From positions 13,682 through 77,681 of IMG/VR virus record IMGVR_UViG_3300019890_000003: a stretch of 64,000 nt of DNA, one strand, 5' to 3'. Source of the DNA: a virus. The stretch's first letter is position 1, and each line of letters begins with the position of its first letter. Below, piece after piece: positions 45,768 to 61,212 of this stretch. The position numbers were made by a program, and so were the translations under genes. The notes beneath the pieces are model-generated. The model made no database searches, was not told where the DNA came from, and saw only the letters and a list, made by a program, of their open reading frames with translations.

Positions 45768-46873
45768 GCGAACTCGCCTTTTGCATAGATGTGAACTATA
45801 ACGGGAGAGAATTGAAATGGCATCTCAAGCGCACCTGTATCTACTGCCTCTTTAAAGATAGTTGATAGTGGCGGAACCACTTCGCTAACGAATGTTGATG
45901 TCACTGAATTGTATGGCCCAAAGTGATCGTTGTATGCGGCGCCTGGGATTGGGTTATAAACGTGCGATTTTGTGATTGTACGGAAGCCGGAGATAATAGT
46001 TATATTCAACTGCTGATTCACGCCAAACGTGACACTAATCGAATATGTCGGGCCGTCAAAGTCCGCTCCGTTCTCTCCGAATAAGAACCTTATGATTCTG
46101 GCCTTTAGCCACAATGGCGAAAAATACTTCCCATCACCCTTAAAGAAGTGCCACGTGATGATGCGCTTGAAAATATCATCTGTAGTCGTGGCGACATTGC
46201 TAGAGCCAATAAACTGAAACCCGTTGTAGGGGTTCTTCTGATTAAAATATTGTGTGTTGTACGGGCCGACAGAGTGAAAAGTGCCGGATGACAGAACTGG
46301 GCGCGCGAGCCCATAGATTCCAGCAGCGACCCAATCGAGGAGGGCGCCAAAGATTTGCGGTTGGGTGTAAATCGGAAGATTGATGGAATTGAACCAATCC
46401 ACGAACTCTTGTGCATACGTGTTGTATGCGAGCACAAAAGCCTGGAGGTCGTCATCATCCGTGTATTGCTGATACAGGTAGCTTGGGAGGGCGGTTGTCA
46501 GACCGGTCGGACCTGACGGCGGGAATGATCCAACAAGAGGAGTAAAGAACGGAGGCGCCGGTTGCCACAGAATGGAAGTGAACTGATGACCACTCGTCGC
46601 CGCATTGACATAAATGCTGTTCGTACTGTTCGGCGTGGCAAAATAGAATTGGCCTGGGAGAAGTTCAAACGTCGTTTGGTTGGCGATAAGCCCAGGCGGC
46701 CCAACCTCGCTTACATATATGGCCTCCGGGATTGCGATGCCCTGATCGCTTGCATTTAGCGGGTTCCAGATAACGCCGCCGGACAACAAGGCATGGATTG
46801 CGACAACCGGCGTGCCGCCAGTTATAATCGCGCTTGCGTTCCCGTGGAACAGATTGACGGGCGCAGACGTCAT
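45764..46873 (-). CDS. Baseplate wedge protein with extra N-terminal domain
   Basis: YLYQQYTDDDDLQAF...LLDWVAAGIYG...DDIFKRIITW; follows baseplate J. Confidence 0.75.
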   Translation of the reverse strand: MTSAPVNLFHGNASAIITGGTPVVAIHALLSGGVIWNPLNASDQGIAIPEAIYVSEVGPPGLIANQTTFELLPGQFYFATPNSTNSIYVNAATSGHQFTSILWQPAPPFFTPLVGSFPPSGPTGLTTALPSYLYQQYTDDDDLQAFVLAYNTYAQEFVDWFNSINLPIYTQPQIFGALLDWVAAGIYGLARPVLSSGTFHSVGPYNTQYFNQKNPYNGFQFIGSSNVATTTDDIFKRIITWHFFKGDGKYFSPLWLKARIIRFLFGENGADFDGPTYSISVTFGVNQQLNITIISGFRTITKSHVYNPIPGAAYNDHFGPYNSVTSTFVSEVVPPLSTIFKEAVDTGALEMPFQFSPVIVHIYAKGEFA

Positions 46874-48306
46874 TAACCCTGTCCGATAACGACAAGCGTG
46901 GGATTAGTGAAAAAGAACGATTCAGGATCCCCAGCGATTATCCCAGTGCCGCCGATCGGCGACGTGCCAATTCCATTGATCGACACGGCAAACACCATGC
47001 GGGTTAGAAGAGCTGGCGGCAGAACCGATTCAATCGCAGTCTGGAATGTCGCTTGCAACTCAAACAGGTTCATCGGTTGCCCGACCGAAATCGAATTGAC
47101 ATAGGTGACTAGAGCGGGGTTCCCGAGCTGCTCCACAGCAGCACCGCCGACGAAATTTACGGCCGATGTATTCCATGTGACGACGACGGCCACCGTTTGC
47201 TGTGGTGGACTAACGTAGATAATATTATAGGTGTCCGGAAAGTCGACTATCGATACGGAATTGTTGCGTAGATTCGGTGTGAGATAGCCGCCGCCGATGT
47301 AAACGCTATATCCGACAGACGTATCTAGCCCCGTGCTGAAATTCTTCTCATCAATCACCGTCACTGTGAGCGGAACGCCGTTGATTTGGTACATCCCAAG
47401 GACATTAAAGGCGGTAACGATCTGTCCGTTGGAATAGCCGTGATTTAGTGCCGTCGTGACAACGGCGGGATTTGCCTGCGTGATGTTTGTGATCGACATC
47501 ACCGATCCAACAATCGTCGATGGATCGCCAATGGCTTGGAAAATCGCGAGCGCGACTTGGAAAGTGTCGCCACCGCCAACAATGACCTCCCATCCACCAG
47601 TTGTCTGCTGAAGGACAGAGATCAAATTTTGTTGAACGCCAGGGACATTTCCAACAAGCGTTTTCAGGAAGCGTGGCATTCCCTGACTTGCCGCGAGCCC
47701 AGCTTGGAGAACACGCGTGCGAAATTCCGACTCGGTTTCAGCCGCGAGGCCAGGCGTTCCTGGAGCGGGATTGGTAACGGTTACATTAAAGCCGGATGGA
47801 ACCGACGTCACAAGTTGTGTGACCGTTCCGGCTAGAACCGCCCATGATCCAGAGACAGTTCCAAAAGCCGTGACAGGAAGTGAATTTCCGGTGACGGCGC
47901 CTATAATTGCCGCTTCTTGGACAGAATATTGGAACGTGCCGTCTGTGACGAGAAACCCGATGGGGATGATATATCCAGCAGGCCCGCTAAACACCACGTT
48001 GACGCTTGTGACGGTAGAACCATGAAGGCCCGCATTGTTCCCTAGATATATCTGCCCAAGCTGATTACAGAGGAAAGCGTTTGCACCGAACGGTGTAATT
48101 GAATTAAGCAACTCGACGCGGAACGAATCCATTTCGACGATGGCGGCAACATCGGTGCTGCTGATATCCTCAATAAGCGTGCCAGGCAGGTTCGCCGTGT
48201 ATCCAGGATTCGTCGCGGAGACTGATGCGACGAGGTTTTGTTCGATTGTCGTTGGCGGTATCGGCTGAAGGCCTGATGGAGCCATGACTGTGGGGAGTTC
48301 TGCCAT
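46873..48306 (-). CDS. Baseplate J-like protein
   Basis: VVFSGPAGYIIPIG, PGLAAETESEFRTRV, VGNVPGV. Confidence 0.85.
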   Translation of the reverse strand: MAELPTVMAPSGLQPIPPTTIEQNLVASVSATNPGYTANLPGTLIEDISSTDVAAIVEMDSFRVELLNSITPFGANAFLCNQLGQIYLGNNAGLHGSTVTSVNVVFSGPAGYIIPIGFLVTDGTFQYSVQEAAIIGAVTGNSLPVTAFGTVSGSWAVLAGTVTQLVTSVPSGFNVTVTNPAPGTPGLAAETESEFRTRVLQAGLAASQGMPRFLKTLVGNVPGVQQNLISVLQQTTGGWEVIVGGGDTFQVALAIFQAIGDPSTIVGSVMSITNITQANPAVVTTALNHGYSNGQIVTAFNVLGMYQINGVPLTVTVIDEKNFSTGLDTSVGYSVYIGGGYLTPNLRNNSVSIVDFPDTYNIIYVSPPQQTVAVVVTWNTSAVNFVGGAAVEQLGNPALVTYVNSISVGQPMNLFELQATFQTAIESVLPPALLTRMVFAVSINGIGTSPIGGTGIIAGDPESFFFTNPTLVVIGQG

Positions 48307-49464
48307 TTATCCAGCTATCCAATTGGTGCCATTGCAGAACGCAGGGCATACGACGCCGCCGCCGCCGGCATCAATCAACGTTGACCCGAAAGTGGCGACA
48401 GAAGTGTTCGTCACGTAACCCCTCAGGCCTCGATGGCTCGCTGGTGGATATGCCGCGTTAAGCCCCGTAACGGTATATGGATTGGTAAGCACGGTGTCGG
48501 CCGCCGACACGCCGGTTATCGCGGCGCTCGTGCCGCTCACGGCGCCTGATGGAGATATCCCACCACCACCGCCACCACCACCGCCTGAAAACATCCCTCC
48601 GAGCGCGCTTAGGATCCCGGTAACATTGGTGTTGCCGCCGATATTCGTATTGCCGGAAATGTTGGTGGTTGGACTATTGATGTCGGTTTTCGGGGCAGTG
48701 ACGTTTACCTGCGCCGACGAGGTAATCTGATGACCGCTTTGGCCAATCGCATGGGTGTGCTTGCCGCCGAACATAGATAGCAACAGGCCGATAGGGCCAG
48801 AACCGCCTTGAGGAACAATAGACTGGGTATGATCACCATTTTGTTGATCCTTGATCGTATGCAGCAACCCGTTCAAGGGATGCAACAAAGATGTCATATT
48901 GTAAGTTGGGTTGGACGTCGGTCCAGTCTGTCCCTGCGCGCCGGTCGAACTTGTTACGCCGTTCGTCGGATGAACGATATGCTTGGCTTTTTTGTTCGTG
49001 TCCCGATGGACTGTACCTGTCGGGCCGTATCCCATGAGCGCCGTTTGATCGTCAGTCGGCGTGAAGTTCTGATTCCCAATCGGGGCGAAAACCAACGGGC
49101 TTAGGTTCCCTGGGTAGGTGAAGTTCGCTGGCGTGCTTGCCCCTAACCCAGAAATATTTCCCAGGTTCGCGGCGCCAGATGAAAGGACGCCCTTATCGCC
49201 AGGGGTGTCTCCGCTTGCTGGCTTGATCGGATACCGAATGTATTCTGGCCCCCAGAGCGGCATTGTTACGTTTGGCAGCGTCCAGGGACCTAGCGCCGTC
49301 CCCTGCGTCTCAAACTTCAGCGTCATGATCGTATTGGACTTATCGATCTTTACGACCGAGGCTGGCAAGTCCTTTGGATAGTTTTGGATGCGGCCGGCGG
49401 CTTGCTTATTTGCGCCGGTATTCTGCTTGACGCCAAAATTATGTTTCTGGACGTCATTGGCCAT
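48307..49464 (-). CDS. Baseplate central spike protein
   Basis: OB-like N-terminus (LPASVVKI...PEYIRYPIK...GDKG); beta-repeat C-terminal half. Confidence 0.7.
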   Translation of the reverse strand: MANDVQKHNFGVKQNTGANKQAAGRIQNYPKDLPASVVKIDKSNTIMTLKFETQGTALGPWTLPNVTMPLWGPEYIRYPIKPASGDTPGDKGVLSSGAANLGNISGLGASTPANFTYPGNLSPLVFAPIGNQNFTPTDDQTALMGYGPTGTVHRDTNKKAKHIVHPTNGVTSSTGAQGQTGPTSNPTYNMTSLLHPLNGLLHTIKDQQNGDHTQSIVPQGGSGPIGLLLSMFGGKHTHAIGQSGHQITSSAQVNVTAPKTDINSPTTNISGNTNIGGNTNVTGILSALGGMFSGGGGGGGGGISPSGAVSGTSAAITGVSAADTVLTNPYTVTGLNAAYPPASHRGLRGYVTNTSVATFGSTLIDAGGGGVVCPAFCNGTNWIAG

Positions 49465-50422
49465 TAGATGTACCCGGATTCAGAAGCGCCTCAATAATAG
49501 TCACCCAGGCGTCACCAGATGGTTGGCGAAAATTGCCTACATGCCGAATTGAGTTGATTGTGAACGTGCCTTGGAATGTAAGAGGAGTGTTTAAGCCTTG
49601 TTGTGCTTCGAACGTCGATATTACCGGAGTTGGCGGCAGCGTAACTTGATCGCCTGTTTTCAAATCACCGCGCATCACGGTTTTGATTGATATTTTTTTC
49701 TGCTCGATCCAAGTCGGCTGGCCAACTAGATCGATGAATTGGATCATCTTTGCGCCGGGCGGCGATGTCCCGTCATGCACGGTTATCTCGCCCTGTTGCA
49801 TACAAAGGCCGACGCCTGGATAGTTCTGCTGCCCAATCATTATTTGTTGGCTAATAGGGCGCAGGATCTTATTAAGCTCTTCCAAAGTGCCGCAATAATG
49901 AATCGTGTCCTGCGGCGCGACAAGTTGCGAGCTGATGTTGATGTTTGCTGTTTGGTCTGGGTAAGCAGTCTGCAAAGTCTGTTGCAGGGCTTCGCTAAGG
50001 GTCTGCCCCTTTTTCCAATTAACCACAATATTTTTAGGCGGTGGGTTCTGCGCGTTTGGTTGCGCCGGCGGGTCGGGTGCCGTTCCTGGGAAAACAACAA
50101 AATTCAAGGTCATATCAGTCATGACCCAATTACCCCAGCTTGAATAGACATATCCCTTAATTAGCGTTCCGTACTCAGACGATTGCGCAGTCGCCAGCGG
50201 TAGGCCTGGTGCCATCCCAGCCGACATGGTGAATGGTTGGTTTATAAATTGCGTGCCCTGGCTTATTGTCTCGAGCGCCTCGCCCCAAATTGTGATCTCG
50301 GCTGGCTTGAAAGTGTCCGCGTCGATAACCGTGATATCCAACTCAATATTCAAGGCATTTGGATCGCCATGGCTGTCCCAGCTTTTAGAGCCGGCCGTAA
50401 CCGTATATGCCCTTTCCGTCAC
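49454..50422 (-). CDS. Baseplate hub protein
   Basis: DLVGQPTWI...MRGDLKTGD...IRHVGNFRQP...W. Confidence 0.75.
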   Translation of the reverse strand: MTERAYTVTAGSKSWDSHGDPNALNIELDITVIDADTFKPAEITIWGEALETISQGTQFINQPFTMSAGMAPGLPLATAQSSEYGTLIKGYVYSSWGNWVMTDMTLNFVVFPGTAPDPPAQPNAQNPPPKNIVVNWKKGQTLSEALQQTLQTAYPDQTANINISSQLVAPQDTIHYCGTLEELNKILRPISQQIMIGQQNYPGVGLCMQQGEITVHDGTSPPGAKMIQFIDLVGQPTWIEQKKISIKTVMRGDLKTGDQVTLPPTPVISTFEAQQGLNTPLTFQGTFTINSIRHVGNFRQPSGDAWVTIIEALLNPGTSNGQ

Positions 50423-50919
50423 GGCGACACTTCGAACTGCTGAGTCGCTTCACGGAACACGAACGTCGACGTCGTAAAATATCCACCGGCGATGTTGATA
50501 TCGTGGCCGATATTCCCATTAACGGTTGCATCACTACCAGGGTCGATCGCGAGCGGGAATGTCAAAGTCGACGGAGCCGTCACGAACATGCTCCATATCC
50601 CATTATACGCCGATGGCGAGACACCTACGACTGTGAGCTGCGCTGTAACGCCAAGCGGTATCCCATGCGGTACGGCGGTGGTCACCGTCACGAGATTCTG
50701 AACGCCGCTCCAAGTAAGAGCCGCAGTTTGGATAGCAGTTGGAGAACCGATAATTGGAAGGTAGAAAATGAGATTGCCAGTCTGATCAAAAAGGTTGATG
50801 TACCACCTTTGACCAGACAATCCCCACGTAATCTTGGCTTGATATTGGGTGCCATCCAAAATTGGCGAGAATGAAAACGGCACAGTCGCCGATGGTGAAA
50901 ATATCGTAAACGTCGTCAT
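50419..50919 (-). CDS. Small baseplate protein
   Basis: FSPILDGTQY...WGLSGQRWYINL; position. Confidence 0.7.
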   Translation of the reverse strand: MTTFTIFSPSATVPFSFSPILDGTQYQAKITWGLSGQRWYINLFDQTGNLIFYLPIIGSPTAIQTAALTWSGVQNLVTVTTAVPHGIPLGVTAQLTVVGVSPSAYNGIWSMFVTAPSTLTFPLAIDPGSDATVNGNIGHDINIAGGYFTTSTFVFREATQQFEVSP

Positions 50920-51659: not shown

Positions 51660-51683
51660 TTGACACGCGAGGGCATTTGCCCT
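51660..51683 (+). promoter_or_regulatory. Moron promoter with operator having perfect inverted arms
   Basis: TTGACA at 51660; AGGGCATTTGCCCT at 51670-51683. Confidence 0.7.
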
Positions 51684-51711
51684 ACAAGGGCAGTAACAAG
51701 AGGAGCCAGAT

Positions 51712-52023
51712 ATGCACATCCTGCTTTTTTTCGTACTGATCGCACTGATCTTTCCGGGTCTGATGCGATTCCTCATGTCCTTGGTTGGGCTCGCGATCCT
51801 TTGCGTAATTATTGTGGCTTCCGCGCACGCTAGCGATACCGCCTGCGAACATGCAGCAGCGTATCAAGTCTCTGGCGAGCCAGGCATGCACCAATGCCTC
51901 GCACACACCCCTATGACGGCAGACTGCCATGCCGTCATGATGGCGTCGATGAACAAGAGAATTCATGAATGCCAAGCTACAAGAAGATTCCTGCAAACTG
52001 GCGATAAGAGGTGGCTGAAATGA
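51712..52023 (+). CDS. Membrane/secreted Cys-containing moron protein
   Basis: GAGGAG RBS; two hydrophobic segments ending AHA. Confidence 0.65.
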   Translation: MHILLFFVLIALIFPGLMRFLMSLVGLAILCVIIVASAHASDTACEHAAAYQVSGEPGMHQCLAHTPMTADCHAVMMASMNKRIHECQATRRFLQTGDKRWLK

Positions 52024-52262
52024 CAAAATTAATGATCATTCTCGCCGCTATGATGCTTGCGAGTCCAGCCGTGGCAGCAGATATATACTCCCATGAAATA
52101 TGTCTTACGGATGGCGGGCGCGCCTTAGCGCACTGCGAACGTTACGGGAACCACTATCTGTGCGACTTTCGTGCGAATCCGCGCGGGAGCGATAAGGGCA
52201 CTGAAATTTGTTACAAGCACGGGGAATGCTTCGCTTGTGACGAATCCACATTGCGTTATTAA
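52020..52262 (+). CDS. Small secreted 6-Cys moron protein
   Basis: ATGA overlap; signal peptide MTKLMIILAAMMLASPAVA. Confidence 0.65.
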   Translation: MTKLMIILAAMMLASPAVAADIYSHEICLTDGGRALAHCERYGNHYLCDFRANPRGSDKGTEICYKHGECFACDESTLRY

Positions 52263-54388
52263 GCAACCGACCAGCTGCCAGGACCTTCAAGTGCAATCTC
52301 TATCTCTGGCTTCCGATGCCTCAGAGCGACCTCTGCCGGATGCTTTCCAAGCGAGACCTGTTTCTCCCGTTTTCGTTCCACAGGGCGGCGGATTTGTGCC
52401 GTGCCTGGATCCGCGTAGTCATGAATCTCAACGTGATCTCCATAATCACCAGAGATCTCTGGCAAGACCCATTTTCCACGCCTTAGCTCTGGTGGACCTG
52501 CAGCTATACCAACATGCCCAGAAGCACCCTGATGCGGCGCAGTCTTATGTCGCCCTTCTACAATAACATCGCCGCGCTTAATATCTTTCCATCCGACCGG
52601 CGCGCCAAACTTCAAATAGTCGGTCGCCATTCTAGTATGCAGCGAACTGTACCCAGCATGATCCAATGCGGCACCGACAAAATCTGCGCACCATAGGCTA
52701 GATGGATGGCCTCTGCCAGTTTCCGATATATATTGCTGAACTTCTCCCGATTGAATCTTCCTGCCTGCAAGAGCCGAAGCCGAATCGGCGATCGTGCCTA
52801 TTTCGCCAGCTTCAGGCGTTGGCAACCCCTGCGATTTATCCGACACTCGCTGAAGAGGCGAACTTTGGCTTCCTGGGCCGCCTGGTGTCTGTGTCCGCGC
52901 TCCCTCTATTGCCGCGCGCTCGTTCTGTGACGGAGTCGGCTGGCCAAACGATTGCTTCGTTGGTGGCGTGCCGCCGCTCTCGGCAGCCTCTTTCTGATGC
53001 TTTGTTAATTGCCCTCCGCCAGGCTTATAGACATCCTCAGGCCTGCCAGGCCGATTTTGCTCTTGCGGAGTTTGCGTTTGCGGCTCTGTGCCGCCAGGCT
53101 TAGTGCTTGTTATTTTATAATCAGAAGGATCGGCTGGTTTCGCTCCCTCCAAAAAGGTGTCTTTAACCCCAGAGAACGCGTTCCAATCCTTGCCATACCG
53201 TTGTTCGATATCGGCACGCGACGCATCCATGCCGCGTTGCATGCCGGCAAAGATATCCTTAAGACTCATATGTGTTATGCGTTCGACGGCATGAATAAGC
53301 GCGGTCGAGTCACGGAGAACGTTGGAAACGCCTTGCTTGAATCCACGGCTTCCCATCGACTTAGCGAGACTATCTATGCCGTCTCCAAGTCTGTCGATCC
53401 ATCCTTTTATCGGGCTTCCGTCCTTCAAAAGATTTTCAACCAGGTGAATGAAAGCATTCGATAAATCTGTCAGACCAGGAATAAGAGTCTTGAGATTTTC
53501 GCCAAAAACCTTCTCCAGCTCGCGCCCAGCCGATTCCATTTGGGTTGTGAAATCTACCCATTTCTGAGCCGTCGCCGGATCTAGACCAAGAGCGTTTTCA
53601 GTCCTGCCTTCGCGGTAACCCTTAACACGCTCTTCGATTTCCTCGCGCGGGATTCCTCGGATGGCCCTAGCCTGTTCGACACCGAGGCCAAGTTTCGTAT
53701 ATCCCAGCGCCTCAAGCCGAGGCTCGAGTTGCTCGTCAGGCGTCCTCTCGACAAAATCTTTGAATTTTGGGAGCGCCTCTACCGCCGCCTCAGCCGCGTC
53801 GCCAGTTGGCTGGTGGCCGATCAAATGCGCGATCTGCGCCTTGCCGACGGGAGTCGAGAGGCCCTCACTGAAACCCTTCAGAATGGCCTCAGGATTGCCC
53901 AAGCGGCGGAAGTTCGTAAGGAAGCTAGCTTGCTCCCCATAGGAGACGCCGAGGCCCATGGCGGACGCTCTTTGGCCAGCTACAGAGGCGGCCATTCGAT
54001 CAATGCCAAAAAGGCCGCCTGCGCCAATAACCCCGGCAAACACCGAGGTCAATTTCGTCCACTTCATCAATGATTGGGTGGATCGAACGATATTTGAAGC
54101 GAACAGTTTCCCTTGGGTGCCAATCAAGCCGAGCGACACCGCAGCGCCATCCAGGAGCTTGCCGACACCGTCTTGCGCCTTCTCGACGATTGTTGATGCG
54201 TCGCCAGTCGCAGCTAGCTTCGCGCTAATCCTTTCGAAGTTAGTTTTCTGTTTTTCAACTTCCTGACCGGCAGCCGTCCAATACGATGGTAGCGCCTTCA
54301 TAACCTCTTTATGTTCATTGAACTTTTGCATAAAATCCTGGAATGCGGAATCGTCAATTTCAATTTCCAGGATCTGACGGTTGACCAT
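52259..54388 (-). CDS. Tape-measure-like protein 2 with C-terminal CHAP/NlpC-P60-like domain
   Basis: WCADFVGAAL...RGDVIV...GHVGI. Confidence 0.8.
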   Translation of the reverse strand: MVNRQILEIEIDDSAFQDFMQKFNEHKEVMKALPSYWTAAGQEVEKQKTNFERISAKLAATGDASTIVEKAQDGVGKLLDGAAVSLGLIGTQGKLFASNIVRSTQSLMKWTKLTSVFAGVIGAGGLFGIDRMAASVAGQRASAMGLGVSYGEQASFLTNFRRLGNPEAILKGFSEGLSTPVGKAQIAHLIGHQPTGDAAEAAVEALPKFKDFVERTPDEQLEPRLEALGYTKLGLGVEQARAIRGIPREEIEERVKGYREGRTENALGLDPATAQKWVDFTTQMESAGRELEKVFGENLKTLIPGLTDLSNAFIHLVENLLKDGSPIKGWIDRLGDGIDSLAKSMGSRGFKQGVSNVLRDSTALIHAVERITHMSLKDIFAGMQRGMDASRADIEQRYGKDWNAFSGVKDTFLEGAKPADPSDYKITSTKPGGTEPQTQTPQEQNRPGRPEDVYKPGGGQLTKHQKEAAESGGTPPTKQSFGQPTPSQNERAAIEGARTQTPGGPGSQSSPLQRVSDKSQGLPTPEAGEIGTIADSASALAGRKIQSGEVQQYISETGRGHPSSLWCADFVGAALDHAGYSSLHTRMATDYLKFGAPVGWKDIKRGDVIVEGRHKTAPHQGASGHVGIAAGPPELRRGKWVLPEISGDYGDHVEIHDYADPGTAQIRRPVERKREKQVSLGKHPAEVALRHRKPEIEIALEGPGSWSVA

Positions 54389-56256
54389 TACGGGCTCCCA
54401 GCCGCTGCTGCATTAGCCGCGTCAACAGTGTTCCCACCAGGATTGTTACGGATCGTTACTTTTGGCTTGTCCGTGGCCGACTTATTGTATGATTCTAACA
54501 TTCGTCTAGAATCTTGCTCGCGCCGTTTCTGGATACCGCCAGCATATCCCTCAAAACTATAGCCGTATCTGTTGCCTTCCTCTATCGAATGCGTCTGACG
54601 CCAGCCGGCTTCCGAGCCTCCGCTGCCTTTGTGCGTCTTTATCTCCTCGCTATAGAAATCCAGTTCATGATGAACGGTATCTCCACCGTGCTCGGATAGA
54701 TAGTTTTTAAGCGCAGTGTTTCGCCCTTCTCTCCATTGAAACAATCCGTGAGCTTCTTTTCCAGGCCCAAGGTTTTTGTCTCCGCCTACTCCTGAGCTAG
54801 CAAGGGCAAAGGACGGATCCTCTGTAAGGATTTGACCAACTGCTGTCGCGGCACCCTCTGGAGTAAATCCCTTCTCCTTTATTAAATAATTCATGGCGTC
54901 CTGAGCAGCTTCTGTGTTCTGCTTATTTATACCACTGCCGCCGCCTCCAAGGTCACTGCGGCCCGCGCCATGATGACCTAATGCCCCAGGCTTGGCATCG
55001 CCGCCACCGTCACCCACATCTTTGCCGCCGCCATGTAGGGAAAGGCCCGGAGCGCTACTAAACCCGCTACTGTCGGATTTCCCCACAACGGCGCTGACAC
55101 CGCCGCCAAACATACCGCTAGTGTCAACCCCCAGCCAGTTAGCGAATTTGAGCAGGCCTGTTAGAAGGCCGCCGAGACTCGATGCAAGGCGCCCAACTTC
55201 TTCGAAGAACGAATTCACATCTTCTCGGAATTCCTTCTTATCGATCTCGCCGGCGAGCCACTTTATACCCTCAGCAAGATCCCCTATGAGTGCGTCAAGC
55301 GGCCCATCCTTGGACATTAGCATCGCGACGAGTTTTACGACTTCCTTAGAAAGATTCCTCAGTGGATCGGCAAGCCTAACGAGGCCCTCGACGAAGATTT
55401 TCTCGATAGAGCGCGAGGCGCTTTCCATCTGTGTGGTGAAATCTGTGTAGGCCTTCAGGGCTTCCGGCGACAAACCATATTTGTTTGCCTTACGTTCCTC
55501 CTGGAATTGCGCAATCTTCTTCTCAATTTGCTCTTCCGATAGATCGCGGCCCATCATCCTCTGTTCATGCGTGAACATCTTGAGGTGCGGATCTGTATCA
55601 AGATTCTCCAGCCTGTCGGCCTTCGCAATCTTGGACATACGCCGCCATGCCGCAATCGCGACATCAGCAGGATCACCTTTGATCTGCTCTCTCGTAAGGC
55701 CTAGAGTTATAAGATCGCGACCCTGGTTCGCCTGCGCTTCGCTAATTGTCGAAAGCAACCCTTCTGGGTCACCGACAACGCTTCTCATATTAGTCAGAAA
55801 AGAAGCGCGGGCTCCATAATCTCCGCCGGTGCTTAGCGCCGCAGTGCGTTGGCTCGCGACAGAATGGGCGAGCCGATCGAAGCCGAACAACCCAGCTCCG
55901 CCCGTAACGAGTCCAAGAATGCCGGACCATTTAAGGAGGGATTCGGTGGCGGCGACAATGTTCTTTGCAACACCGCCAGTTGTAAGCGACAGCTCCTTCC
56001 AATAGCGCGTGGTCGATATCGTGATCTGATGAAAATCTTTTGCGGAACCGTGGATCGCGGCCATACTGCCGGCTACCACACCGGTAGAAGCCGCCGTCTC
56101 CTCAAACTTAGTTTTTACAACGCCAGCCGATTGCCCAGCTTTCTTCCATAGATCCGGCACCGTCGCGAGCAGGGCCGCATACTTCGCGAATTTATCCGTG
56201 AAGGCCTGAAATTCAGCCGAGTTAACATCGACGTCAATTTGTGTCTTACCGGCCAC
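54388..56256 (-). CDS. Tape-measure-like protein 1 with C-terminal tail-lysozyme-like domain
   Basis: GFTPEGAATAVGQILTE...AHGLFQWREGR. Confidence 0.8.
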   Translation of the reverse strand: MAGKTQIDVDVNSAEFQAFTDKFAKYAALLATVPDLWKKAGQSAGVVKTKFEETAASTGVVAGSMAAIHGSAKDFHQITISTTRYWKELSLTTGGVAKNIVAATESLLKWSGILGLVTGGAGLFGFDRLAHSVASQRTAALSTGGDYGARASFLTNMRSVVGDPEGLLSTISEAQANQGRDLITLGLTREQIKGDPADVAIAAWRRMSKIAKADRLENLDTDPHLKMFTHEQRMMGRDLSEEQIEKKIAQFQEERKANKYGLSPEALKAYTDFTTQMESASRSIEKIFVEGLVRLADPLRNLSKEVVKLVAMLMSKDGPLDALIGDLAEGIKWLAGEIDKKEFREDVNSFFEEVGRLASSLGGLLTGLLKFANWLGVDTSGMFGGGVSAVVGKSDSSGFSSAPGLSLHGGGKDVGDGGGDAKPGALGHHGAGRSDLGGGGSGINKQNTEAAQDAMNYLIKEKGFTPEGAATAVGQILTEDPSFALASSGVGGDKNLGPGKEAHGLFQWREGRNTALKNYLSEHGGDTVHHELDFYSEEIKTHKGSGGSEAGWRQTHSIEEGNRYGYSFEGYAGGIQKRREQDSRRMLESYNKSATDKPKVTIRNNPGGNTVDAANAAAAGSP

Positions 56257-56581
56257 CGAGCGCCTCCGCGATTTGCCTCAGAGACCCAATAATCGCGCGC
56301 TCTCTAAATTCCCGTGCCGAGCGGTACTCGTAGCCAAGTTCCCGCATAACAAGCGAGAATCCCTCAGTTGCCGCCCATGCTAGGCAGGTATCTGTGATCG
56401 GCGCCTCGTGTGCTCTTGCGGTTTGGCTGCCGAATTTGCGATCGCCGTCGATCTCGACAATGAAGCGCAAAACTCCGAACAGCTCAATGATTCTAAGCGC
56501 GCACCCCACAGTCTCGAGGCCCCGTCGAGAATCCCTCTCCGATCCGCTTTCCGATGCATGTGACAAGCGACAGAAAAAAAA
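56246..56581 (-). CDS. Probable -1 frameshift extension of the tail assembly chaperone
   Basis: -1 frame is open from the T8 run (56581-56574) to 56246 and overlaps the tape-measure start. Confidence 0.5.
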   Translation of the reverse strand, partial: FFFCRLSHASESGSERDSRRGLETVGCALRIIELFGVLRFIVEIDGDRKFGSQTARAHEAPITDTCLAWAATEGFSLVMRELGYEYRSAREFRERAIIGSLRQIAEALGGR

Positions 56582-56973
56582 GCTAGCGCGTTTTCCACCT
56601 CTGACATGTCGTCTTCATCAATGTGGCCTTTCGCAATGGCCTCATGGATCGGTATTGTTTCCCATCCGTTGTCAGTCAAAACTAGCACGTTGGTCAAGCG
56701 GCGGATTTCATTCATCAGCCCGCGTTCGACGCCCTCTGGACCATCCCAGACGCCCATCTCTATCGCAGTATCCTTGATGACCATCGAGGCCACGCGCGGC
56801 CCCGACATGATTCCAAGGCCACCGCTGTAGATCGTATTAAACGCCTTCGCCATCACCATGTAATATCTCTCGAACACAGCGCGAGAAATTGGAATAGCGT
56901 ACACATGAACTGTCGTGCCGTTTTCCCGTTCAATTGGCATTACAAAGTTTAGCGTGTTTTTATCTATTTGCAT
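56380..56973 (-). CDS. Tail assembly chaperone
   Basis: Between tube and tape measure; TAATG coupling at 56973. Confidence 0.7.
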   Translation of the reverse strand: MQIDKNTLNFVMPIERENGTTVHVYAIPISRAVFERYYMVMAKAFNTIYSGGLGIMSGPRVASMVIKDTAIEMGVWDGPEGVERGLMNEIRRLTNVLVLTDNGWETIPIHEAIAKGHIDEDDMSEVENALAFFSVACHMHRKADRRGILDGASRLWGARLESLSCSEFCASLSRSTAIANSAAKPQEHTRRRSQIPA

Positions 56974-57430: not shown

Positions 57431-58810
57431 TTAGGTTATCACAAACTGGCTAACGACCAGATTGAAGACGATATTGCGGAAGCCGCGAGACGGCGTGTAG
57501 ATAACTGAGAACCCGGCGTATCGTCCGATCTTGTAATCGCTCGGGTTCTCTTGGCTATAGGTGATGAACGGAACCGCATTGACGATCGTAAAGCCTACGA
57601 AATCCTGATCGCCAAGTGCGGTATCAAGAATCGGGCCGTCGAGGGCAACTTGGATGGATGGGAACAGCGCCAACCCGAACGTAACCGCAGAATTCATCGT
57701 ACTCGCAATGACGCTCTGCAATACGTTGATGCCAGCTTGATTGTAGTACAGCGGATTGACAGGGTTGTTAGACCCGTTGATGATCGCGTTAGACACATTC
57801 AGGTCGACGTTAATCTGAACCCAATCCACCGAGTACCAGTAGCTGAAGTCGTTCCCGTCCATGGCCGTGCCATAGAGAAGGATCGCCTCGGCAATACCGC
57901 CTTCGGCACCGGTCCCGACAACATTAACAAAGGCATTCGAGTACGTCGTCAAGAGCGCCGAATTACCCATGGTCGGATAAGGCGTGACACCAAACAGGAA
58001 GTCAAAAGCGAACGGAGTCACCTTGTTGGTTGTGCTTGGCAACTGATGCAGCACACCCCAGAACGCGGCTGCGTTGCTAAATTCAGTCGATGGTATGCCG
58101 GGCGCCTCGATCAAACCAAACACGCTCTTCATCAAATTGGAATACAGCGTGTAATTGGCGTTCGTCATCGTAACGAAGAAATACGTCTTCGCTGTCGCCG
58201 CCTCGAAATTGGTTGCCATCGTCACGAAGGTTGGCGCGCTCGCCCATGACCGTGGAACCAGATAGGCGTAGAAGAATTGCGGGGTGTTGATGATCCAGTT
58301 ATTCAGATACGTCACGCCGTCAGCCGCGTTTCCTGGCCCAATCTCAAGGACATAGACGGCTTGCGCCGCGCCCTGAGCAAAGAAGGTCGTGGCCATCGCG
58401 TTCAACTCTGCGACGTCCTCGAGGGTGTAGGTGCCGACCGAGGATGTGCTACCCGGGTTGACGACGAGCGGATATGTGAACGTGCTCGCGCCGGTGATGG
58501 TGGCCGTGAACGTTCCGTTATATCCGCTGGGGACAGCCCCAACGATCGTAACCAGCAGCGTGTCCGCAATGGTGAACCCGTGCGGCGCCGTGGTCGTTAC
58601 GGTCGCAACGCTCGACGCCCATGAAATGGTTGTGATGGCATGAGCGCCGTTTATGATCGGCGTCAGATCCGATAGTTGGGTGAGAAGCGACATCGTGCCA
58701 GGGGCCGTCGTGGTTGCCCCCTGGGAAATGAACGCGCCTGTCTGTTGAAGCTTGCTCGGAGTCGGCGCTACTAACTGCGAGACATTTACTGTAACGATAG
58801 GAGTCGTCAT
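57431..58810 (-). CDS. Tail sheath protein
   Basis: ~459 aa; YWYSVDWVQIN...LYYNQAGIN...NPSDYKIGRYAG. Confidence 0.85.
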   Translation of the reverse strand: MTTPIVTVNVSQLVAPTPSKLQQTGAFISQGATTTAPGTMSLLTQLSDLTPIINGAHAITTISWASSVATVTTTAPHGFTIADTLLVTIVGAVPSGYNGTFTATITGASTFTYPLVVNPGSTSSVGTYTLEDVAELNAMATTFFAQGAAQAVYVLEIGPGNAADGVTYLNNWIINTPQFFYAYLVPRSWASAPTFVTMATNFEAATAKTYFFVTMTNANYTLYSNLMKSVFGLIEAPGIPSTEFSNAAAFWGVLHQLPSTTNKVTPFAFDFLFGVTPYPTMGNSALLTTYSNAFVNVVGTGAEGGIAEAILLYGTAMDGNDFSYWYSVDWVQINVDLNVSNAIINGSNNPVNPLYYNQAGINVLQSVIASTMNSAVTFGLALFPSIQVALDGPILDTALGDQDFVGFTIVNAVPFITYSQENPSDYKIGRYAGFSVIYTPSRGFRNIVFNLVVSQFVIT

Positions 58811-58828
58811 TGGCGCGTCCATCCGTGC

Positions 58829-59561: not shown

Positions 59562-60650
59562 TCAGGGGCTCTCTGGATCGTAACTGTGGAACTCAGCCGG
59601 GACCGTGATAAAGGACGGTAGCGCCTGGCCTATGATTTGACGCGCGATATGACGCGCGCGCAGTTGGTAATAGCTAATCTCGTATTCGATGGTTTTTTTC
59701 TGCGCGATAATCCCAAGCTCGTTCTGAGACATCTTCTCGTCGCGCATAATCGGAACGTTCATCAATCCAAAATAATCATAGTCAGCACTGTACTGATTAA
59801 CAGCATCAACGAAATCCATAGCGTAGCTATTACCGAGTCCATAGATCGTTACCTTCACGCGCTCTCTGGTGAGCTGCTGATGGGATGATCGAAAACCGAT
59901 GCGAGGCGTGCTAGCGAGCGCCTGCGTGCTGTCCGGATAGATATGCACCGAGGCGAATGGCGGTGGAGTGTTTGGTTGGACTAGGTGGGAGGGAAACAAC
60001 GGCATCATCGTGTTGCCGAAACCATAGGACGGCAACGTCGGGGTGTAATTGTTAAGCTTCAACCAAAGCGGCAGGCTGTTCGACACTATCTGTGCGCCGG
60101 TGTTGATTTGCGCCGCGTTGTCGATAATCTGCGAATCCATGAATGGATAGATCGCGTCGCCGATATAGTGCCAGATATCCGCTTGCCGGTAGAAATTTTC
60201 CCTGTTCGAGAACGCGAACCTGATGCCATCGCAACGATCGCTTATCGTCCCGATATAAATCATATTGGTGTTGATGCGGCTGAAATCCTGGTGAAGCGGC
60301 TCCTCGCTCGTGAAGGTGATTTTGTTGATCCCGTAGGATTCGGTTTCGTCCTGAATCTTCTGAGACGCGAAATGAAGCGAGCCCTTGGCGACGATCGTCT
60401 TGGCGGCCGTCGTTATCGTTGGCTGCCCGTTGAGAATCTCGGAGTTGTATGGCGAGAGAGCCGAATTGAATATCGCCGACGGGCTGAGCAAGTCAGCCTT
60501 CACCCAGAACACGAATTGATCAAGCGGCAATATCACCTTGACGTATTGCGTAAAGGTCACAGTCTGTTGGGCCGATAACGACTCTATTCCTGCCCTGAGG
60601 TCCGAACTCAGCGGTGTTGGTGCAAAGCTTGCCTCAGCCGCTGTCGGCAT
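59562..60650 (-). CDS. Neck / tail-completion protein
   Basis: 362 aa between neck genes and sheath; positional call. Confidence 0.6.
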   Translation of the reverse strand: MPTAAEASFAPTPLSSDLRAGIESLSAQQTVTFTQYVKVILPLDQFVFWVKADLLSPSAIFNSALSPYNSEILNGQPTITTAAKTIVAKGSLHFASQKIQDETESYGINKITFTSEEPLHQDFSRINTNMIYIGTISDRCDGIRFAFSNRENFYRQADIWHYIGDAIYPFMDSQIIDNAAQINTGAQIVSNSLPLWLKLNNYTPTLPSYGFGNTMMPLFPSHLVQPNTPPPFASVHIYPDSTQALASTPRIGFRSSHQQLTRERVKVTIYGLGNSYAMDFVDAVNQYSADYDYFGLMNVPIMRDEKMSQNELGIIAQKKTIEYEISYYQLRARHIARQIIGQALPSFITVPAEFHSYDPESP

Positions 60651-61212
60651 ATCCGGCCCTCTGGTTGTCTAACCATACCGCTGGATGGAAATCTCGCTTG
60701 GAATAATTGCATGCGGCGCATAGCCATTGAAGATTTTCAATGCTATTTGATCCACCTAGTTTGATAGGAATTATATGGTCGATATGACGTTTCTCATTCC
60801 ACAAATTCGCTTTGCAGTATGGATTTGCGCAGATGTGATGCTGACTAACCAGCAGTTCTTTTGTCTGCGCGGCAGTATGAGCACCATTAGATCCGCTAAT
60901 TCTTGCGCGCCTATTTCTTGTGTCAGCTCTGACAGCTTCAGGATTTTTCTTTTTCCACAATTTTGCTCTTAACTTCACACTATCGGAATTTCTCCGATAC
61001 CAATCTGCCCTCTCAGCTTTGGATTTCTCTAAATCGGCGTAATACACATCTTCTGATTTTCTCTTAATCTTCTCAGAATTACGTGCATAATAATTCGCGC
61101 CGGCGATAGACACGCACTCCTTGCATTCAGGACGAAGTCCATCCTTGCTCCTTACGCGTCTATGAAAACGATCTAGAGGTTTAGCAGATTTGCAGATTAC
61201 GCAAATTTTCAT
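60634..61212 (-). CDS. HNH endonuclease
   Basis: CVIC...CKEC; HIDHIIPIKLGGSNSIENLQWLCAACN; AT-richer than its flanks. Confidence 0.9.
   Translation of the reverse strand: MKICVICKSAKPLDRFHRRVRSKDGLRPECKECVSIAGANYYARNSEKIKRKSEDVYYADLEKSKAERADWYRRNSDSVKLRAKLWKKKNPEAVRADTRNRRARISGSNGAHTAAQTKELLVSQHHICANPYCKANLWNEKRHIDHIIPIKLGGSNSIENLQWLCAACNYSKRDFHPAVWLDNQRAGYADSG

Follow-up and report, generated by a model that had tools for sequence, protein, structure and literature searches.

Tape measure proteins of phage tails are usually treated as homo-oligomers encoded by a single gene. Here, we describe two adjacent paralogous genes, A and B, which lie at what appears from gene order to be the tape-measure position of a contractile-tail phage. 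They were found in a 64,000-nucleotide (nt) stretch of viral DNA (the window), which corresponds to bases 13682-77681 of the 77,681-bp IMG/VR virus record IMGVR_UViG_3300019890_000003, rated complete by CheckV.

A muralytic domain in a tape measure is well established for mycobacteriophage TM4 Tmp (PMC1796659) and phage T5 pb2 (PMC10038345), where the tape measure carries a wall-degrading activity and is ejected at infection. These siphophages have one such gene each, whereas in the locus described here two predicted bond specificities are divided between paralogous carriers. The Anabaena myophage A-1(L) also delivers two different wall-cutting activities with a contractile tail, but both reside on its hub protein and its tape measure is single and enzyme-free (PMC10966104).

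Our literature search turned up mostly papers on the two chaperone products, and one real precedent for a tape-measure pair. In the Staphylococcus jumbo phages MarsHill, Madawaska, Machias and DC4, "two potential tape measure proteins" have been noted, one of them annotated as a tail lysin (bioRxiv 10.1101/2020.12.14.422802; PMC10638138). As in our locus, these are two neighbouring helical tape-measure-like proteins whose peptidoglycan hydrolase domains differ (PF18013 and PF00877 in one, M23 in the other). They differ in their length, about 2000 amino acids (aa), and in coming from an unrelated jumbo-phage tail whose host is Gram-positive; we saw no similarity in sequence to the present family, and the pair is only mentioned there, without analysis. 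Our addition is a different and smaller tape-measure family, in which sequence comparison shows the pair to be old, of fixed order, under selection and moved as a unit.

The closest cultured relatives, Pantoea phage PdC23, five Yersinia vB_YenM phages and the Klebsiella phages Chronis, RothC and RothD, have one homologue each at the same place. The N-terminal module is matched in PdC23 and the Yersinia group at 26-29% identity (E 1e-29 to 2e-30) and in the Klebsiella phages with E-values of 4e-18 to 2e-17. PdC23 gp15 (Certevirus) is annotated as "tail length tape measure protein", and the proteins of the vB_YenM_06.16-1 group as "virion protein" or "lytic transglycosylase domain-containing protein". 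In the two records inspected, PdC23 and vB_YenM_29.18, no gene from tube to baseplate other than this homologue has sufficient length for a tape measure. The Yersinia vB_YenM phages are myoviruses by electron microscopy (PMC9224151). Like A and B, these single-copy relatives follow the sheath, tube and chaperone genes and carry a wall-cutting domain before an NNTGGN-type tail, but they have one gene in genomes of 44-46 kb, against 77.7 kb for the paired phage.

Identification of the A/B gene pair

Two adjacent full-length paralogues at 52259-56256 had been proposed from the letters of the window in the original prediction, and open reading frames (ORFs) are present at exactly these coordinates:

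54388-56256, minus strand: tape-measure paralogue A, 622 aa, GTG start, GGAGG Shine-Dalgarno sequence 5 nt upstream
52259-54388, minus strand: tape-measure paralogue B, 709 aa, ATG start, GGGAG Shine-Dalgarno sequence within the 3' end of A

The stop codon of A overlaps the ATG of B as TAATG. BLASTP aligns B with A at 32% identity over 358 columns (B residues 7-360, A residues 7-353, 15 gaps, E 4e-49), and the three motif blocks quoted as shared all lie within this alignment. Exactly two copies of the family are present in the whole 77,681-bp genome. Both proteins follow one plan, an N-terminal module, a linker, a cargo domain and a short C-terminal tail; since a short conserved tail is present in both, calling them full-length is fair. 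A split single gene was rejected, as an N-terminus, a cargo and a C-terminal tail are all present in both A and B. The low identity of the paralogues (25-32%) and their separate clades led us to reject a recent duplication or gene conversion as well. A megablast search of the 4-kb region against phage records gave no match.

Outside the cargo domains, the proteins are composed of the following parts:

55132-56256, minus strand: all-helical N-terminal module of A, residues 1-375, with a hydrophobic Gly-rich motif at residues 113-128 (AlphaFold model and family alignment)
54925-55131, minus strand: Gly/Ser-rich disordered linker of A, residues 376-444, 35% Gly, predicted local distance difference test score (pLDDT) of about 32
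54391-54480, minus strand: conserved C-terminal tail of A (KPKVTIRNNPGGN...), resembling the NNTGGN tail of single-copy relatives
53249-54388, minus strand: helical N-terminal module of B, residues 1-380, with the hydrophobic motif at residues 113-131
52784-53248, minus strand: Pro/Gln/Gly/Thr-rich linker of B, assigned by composition, unalignable and variable
52262-52372, minus strand: derived C-terminal tail of B (GKHP...KPEIEIALEGPGSWSVA), from the family alignment

Modelled with AlphaFold from an alignment of 70 sequences, A is helical between residues 14 and 374, with pLDDT values of 90-98 for residues 125-290. The best-conserved block of the family is a hydrophobic Gly-rich stretch followed by GLFG(I/F)DR (residues 113-131). 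In both copies the N-terminal module stays within 368-388 residues in length, although identity drops to about 30%, and the residues that are invariant across an 18-sequence family alignment are retained by both A and B. Helical content and a hydrophobic segment, as predicted here from the model and the family alignment, are typical of tape measures. Among named look-alikes in BFVD (structural) and the ESM Atlas (language-model and structural; 0.93), most belong to tape-measure families, with weak scores.

Tail-module context

The genes around the pair were assigned as follows:

57431-58822, minus strand: tail sheath gene, 463 aa, phrog_205 (E 7e-29), 89-91% identical in the related loci L085 and L086
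56973-57416, minus strand: tail tube-like gene, 147 aa, phrog_6566 (E 1.7e-44), between sheath and chaperone as in PdC23 and the Yersinia phages
56380-56973, minus strand: tail assembly chaperone, 0-frame (G-like) product, 200 aa, phrog_11810, homologous in L026, L085, L086 and L079
56575-56581, minus strand: slippery heptamer T_TTT_TTT, in the correct phase for a candidate -1 frameshift, from sequence
56246-56574, minus strand: predicted -1 frame (GT-like) extension of the chaperone; the ORF spans 56246-56566 and ends 8 nt inside A
49454-50422, minus strand: baseplate hub gene, 322 aa, phrog_196 (E 3e-28)

The gene order is sheath, tube-like, 200 aa, A, B, a small ORF, 242 aa, 166 aa, hub, 385 aa and baseplate J. 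By the families of their predicted products, the surrounding genes form a Mu-like contractile-tail module in which A and B stand at the tape-measure position, and every other gene from tube to baseplate is too short for a tape measure. The probable ATG of the chaperone gene, at 56973, overlaps the tube stop codon as TAATG. In paired and single-copy relatives alike, T_TTT_TTT is found roughly 250-460 nt upstream of the tape-measure start, and a -1 ORF reaching that start recurs. By analogy with solved tails, the tape-measure C-termini are likely to dock in the hub gene product; in A-1(L), the ~20 C-terminal residues of the tape measure make up a tripod within the hub (PMC10966104).

Predicted wall-cutting domains of A and B

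One protein had been described as ending in a lysozyme-like domain and the other in a Cys/His CHAP-like domain. Both assignments were borne out:

54481-54924, minus strand: Phage_lysozyme2 (PF18013) domain of A, from Pfam
52373-52783, minus strand: NlpC/P60-CHAP-type cysteine peptidase domain of B, with C567, H625 and D648, from homologues and fold

In A, the PF18013 match covers residues 450-583 and lies well above the gathering cut-off (E 1.8e-13; 51.3 bits versus 28.2). The Glu of the E-S..NP family motif is kept as T-E-D (residues 478-480), in a part where the alignment is messy and the domain model is of low confidence.

The cargo of B falls below the cut-off of every curated hidden Markov model (Amidase_5, 19.3 versus 21 bits; TIGR02594, 26.5 versus 70.55; likewise CHAP and NLPC_P60). 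It has 400 homologues at E<=1e-3, and in a 36-sequence alignment (A3) H625 of the GHVG motif is invariant and C567 of the WC motif is at least 90% conserved. The polar third residue, D648, follows an invariant Gly and is Asn in most homologues. The AlphaFold model of this domain has a pLDDT of 85. Foldseek with the peptidase model was weak alone (best E 1.8e-3), but VIA-align on the same matches was clear, with Z of 10-12.4 and a root-mean-square deviation of about 3 A over 110-128 residues (model residues 3-154). Over the whole domain, the structural matches are NlpC/P60 endopeptidases, CHAP endolysin domains and type VI amidase effectors (Tae/Tse). By modelled fold and motifs, the cargo of B is thus a member of the NlpC/P60-CHAP superfamily that stands outside the curated families.

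Cargo domains were also compared across the family. Of ten single-copy relatives scanned with Pfam, six carry a glycan-cutting domain (PF18013 or SLT), one (L109) a weak CHAP match and three no recognised domain. The A copies have Phage_lysozyme2 wherever Pfam recognises any domain: PF18013 is found in those of L085, L086, L087, L091 and L165, and in L026 it scores 27.8 bits, just below the cut-off. The B cargos are more varied, being of NlpC/P60 type in the window and L092, Peptidase_M15_4 in L085 and L026, and a weak Amidase_2 in L086. This pattern is likely to have arisen when an ancestral glycosidase-tipped tape measure was doubled, one copy staying conservative and the other taking up peptide- or amide-cutting cargos by cassette exchange.

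Two further cargo types were observed among single-copy proteins. The 947-aa protein of L109 (4805-7648, plus strand), sister to the B clade, has its weak CHAP match at residues 715-798 and a second, unrecognised domain of the RGRGSSP..GAVEIH..CFGIP type, a type that P0008 and P0019 also have as cargo; L109 may encode a single protein with two cargos. In L014, L020, L033 and other enterobacterial prophage loci, the cargo of single-copy relatives from Yersinia- and Klebsiella-type prophages is a domain unrecognised by Pfam and marked by an NPGNLR...GFAVFP motif.

Distribution, phylogeny and selection

Single-protein scans of viral contigs gave no match, and an alignment-derived pattern was needed to retrieve 169 related loci (denoted here by L numbers) from viral, metagenome and genome collections. 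Copies counted by tblastn gave two tandem copies in L026, L085, L086, L087, L088, L091, L092, L094, L096 and L165, and a single copy at all other loci. The pair is thus found in ten further contigs, as a survey of relatives had been suggested to establish. That one tape measure gene is the norm also agrees with the count, about 160 single-copy loci versus 11 with a pair (window included), a figure to be read with the fact that many loci are short and that 25 single-copy rows of the tree have too little flank to exclude a partner. In all ten paired loci the A-like copy precedes the B-like copy.

In a maximum-likelihood tree of 125 N-terminal modules, all A copies form one clade, with Shimodaira-Hasegawa-like approximate likelihood ratio test (SH-aLRT) support of 100 for the core and 82 with the two most distant members. 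All B copies form another, with support of 96 for the core and 90 with the most distant member. Branching within the two clades is congruent, and their separation indicates that the split is old. The sister of the B clade is the single-copy L109/L123, so B may stem either from a tandem duplication or from the capture of a related gene.

The ratio of nonsynonymous to synonymous divergence (dN/dS) is 0.09-0.13 for A and B, close to that of the tube gene and indicative of purifying selection; these values are rough, since dS is saturated for A. A pseudogene or decaying duplicate was rejected on this dN/dS of about 0.1 and on the intact ORFs found wherever a copy is visible whole, except copy B of L094. 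Taken together, the age, conservation, purifying selection and constant order of the pair argue that both copies are functional. Separately, copy B of L094 (2393-4488, plus strand) is frameshifted near residue 146, through an assembly error or as the only decayed copy seen.

The pair stands directly behind the chaperone gene in the window, L085, L086 and L096, and behind homologues of the 242- and 166-aa genes in L026; its adjacency is kept through three different rearrangements of gene order. Identity to L085 and L086 is 56-66% for A and 66-79% for B, and 85-91% for sheath, tube, chaperone and baseplate J. Between the window and these two loci, dS is 1.6-2.7 for the tape-measure genes and 0.8 for the tube gene. 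The higher divergence of this segment, as far as sequence can tell, suggests mosaic exchange.

Proposed mechanism and alternatives

Of the original prediction, the paralogy, the tape-measure position and the split between glycan- and peptide-cutting domains are supported; its hetero-oligomer and its two particle types are hypotheses. In our preferred reading, to which we give about an even chance, A and B are anciently duplicated tape measures of one Mu-like contractile tail that are loaded together, ejected, and cut glycan and peptide, respectively. Each protein has three parts that are required of a tape measure, a fixed-length, helical and partly hydrophobic N-terminal module (~375 residues), a flexible linker and a C-terminal tail; the tail would dock in the baseplate hub, by analogy with solved tails, and an exchangeable cargo slot lies between linker and tail. 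A would retain the ancestral glycan-cutting cargo (Phage_lysozyme2), and B would have exchanged it for a peptide- or amide-cutting one, here the NlpC/P60-CHAP cysteine peptidase. The two genes are translationally coupled and lie behind a putatively frameshifting chaperone gene, and A and B may both be loaded with chaperone help into one tail lumen, where a mixed trimer would be the simplest arrangement. Sheath contraction would be followed by ejection of both into the periplasm. There, one enzyme would attack the glycan strands and the other the peptide stems, so that the peptidoglycan is opened, and DNA passage might be aided by the hydrophobic segments. Virion incorporation, co-assembly and enzymatic activity are the parts of this reading that we infer.

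Several observations weigh against it. The N-terminal module matched no Pfam tape-measure family (PF10145 PhageMin_Tail, PF20155 TMP_3, PF09718 Tape_meas_lam_C, PF06791 TMP_2), even at E<=1. A family profile run against PDB sequences matched designed coiled coils only, and a VIA-wide search with the full A model returned generic helical proteins with Z<=5.6, so that no solved relative of the module is findable by those searches. Given these negatives in Pfam and among solved structures, we call A and B tape measures by function and position and not as members of a curated family. The AlphaFold model of the lysozyme domain of A is of low confidence. In L092, the pair lies behind the hub gene, away from the chaperone, and in L088 its members are the last structural genes before the integrase and primase, again away from the chaperone. 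Finally, several cargos of the B clade are unrecognised (Pfam at E<=1 gave nothing useful for them) and that of P0013 has a weak lysozyme2 match, so a rule of sugar for A and peptide for B is not universal.

A stricter form of co-loading, which we hold only tentatively and consider somewhat unlikely, is an obligate hetero-oligomeric tape measure: A and B would share one lumen in fixed stoichiometry, with each tail variant plugged into the hub. If this were true, gene duplication would be the family's way to multiply tape-measure cargo slots, and the pair would be the first defined mixed tape measure, tractable for questions of chain number and of how folded enzymes travel through the tube.

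The two proteins might instead divide the labour, A being the length-setting tape measure and B a derived, ejected lysin or pilot of low copy number with no role in length, which would use its old N-terminal module and tail merely to ride in or near the lumen. The cargo and tail of A are like those of the single-copy relatives and those of B are derived, A stands directly behind the chaperone frameshift ORF, and the authors of the Staphylococcus jumbo phage work call the second such protein a "tail lysin". However, among close relatives the N-terminal module is better conserved in B than in A (79% versus 64-66%; 66% versus 56-58%), and the module of B keeps both its length and all residues that are invariant in the 18-sequence alignment. 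Such conservation is unexpected for a passenger freed of ruler constraints, and we regard this division as improbable.

It is also distinctly improbable that A and B form homo-oligomers in two particle types, glycosidase-tipped and peptidase-tipped tails that would hedge bets over wall states or hosts. Each copy has an N-terminal module of equal length and a hub tail, enough to act alone, and the single-copy relatives show that a homo-oligomer works; but strict adjacency, fixed order and the TAATG overlap across lineages point to co-expression in one assembly line, and no regulatory element lies between A and B. A further possibility is that neither protein is a tape measure, both being wall hydrolases associated with the baseplate or hub, as T4 gp5 is, or else internal ejection proteins, with tail length set otherwise. 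This would fit the Pfam negatives, the confident modelling of residues 125-290 as a compact helical domain and not one long rod, and the variable position of the pair in L092 and L088, but is very improbable given the lack of any other tube-to-baseplate gene of sufficient length, the conserved and putatively frameshifting chaperone gene directly upstream, and the helical content, hydrophobic segment and mostly tape-measure look-alikes.

The conserved pair combines rulers of equal length with different enzymes, in a slot that is freely swapped across the family (lysozyme2, SLT, NlpC/P60, M15, amidase, CHAP and unrecognised domains). It offers a natural test system for tape-measure stoichiometry, for the carriage of enzymes in the tube and for any gain in infection from cutting both bond types. 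Annotators should be aware that a gene called as a second tape measure may be genuine, and not a split gene or an error. In practical terms the pair is of modest value, as a source of modular virion-associated lysins.

Other observations on the structural genes

The spacer between B and the 242-aa gene (51682-52258, minus strand, ~600 nt) holds only a poorly conserved 114-aa ORF with a TTG start and no family match; in L085 and L086, the spacer is 730-820 nt long. The 166-aa baseplate protein (50419-50919, minus strand) has a weak match to the Pam3 gp18 "plug". It also shares a segment of ~60-75 residues with the sheath (residues 53-137) at 35-46% identity, a likeness that is seen in L026, L085, L086 and L079 as well. 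The baseplate J-like protein (46873-48306, minus strand) contains an inserted E1_FCCH-like domain (PF16190, E 2.5e-9), which is also present in its L026 homologue. Finally, a gene for an HNH / endonuclease VII protein (60634-61212, minus strand) lies within the block of head-neck structural genes.

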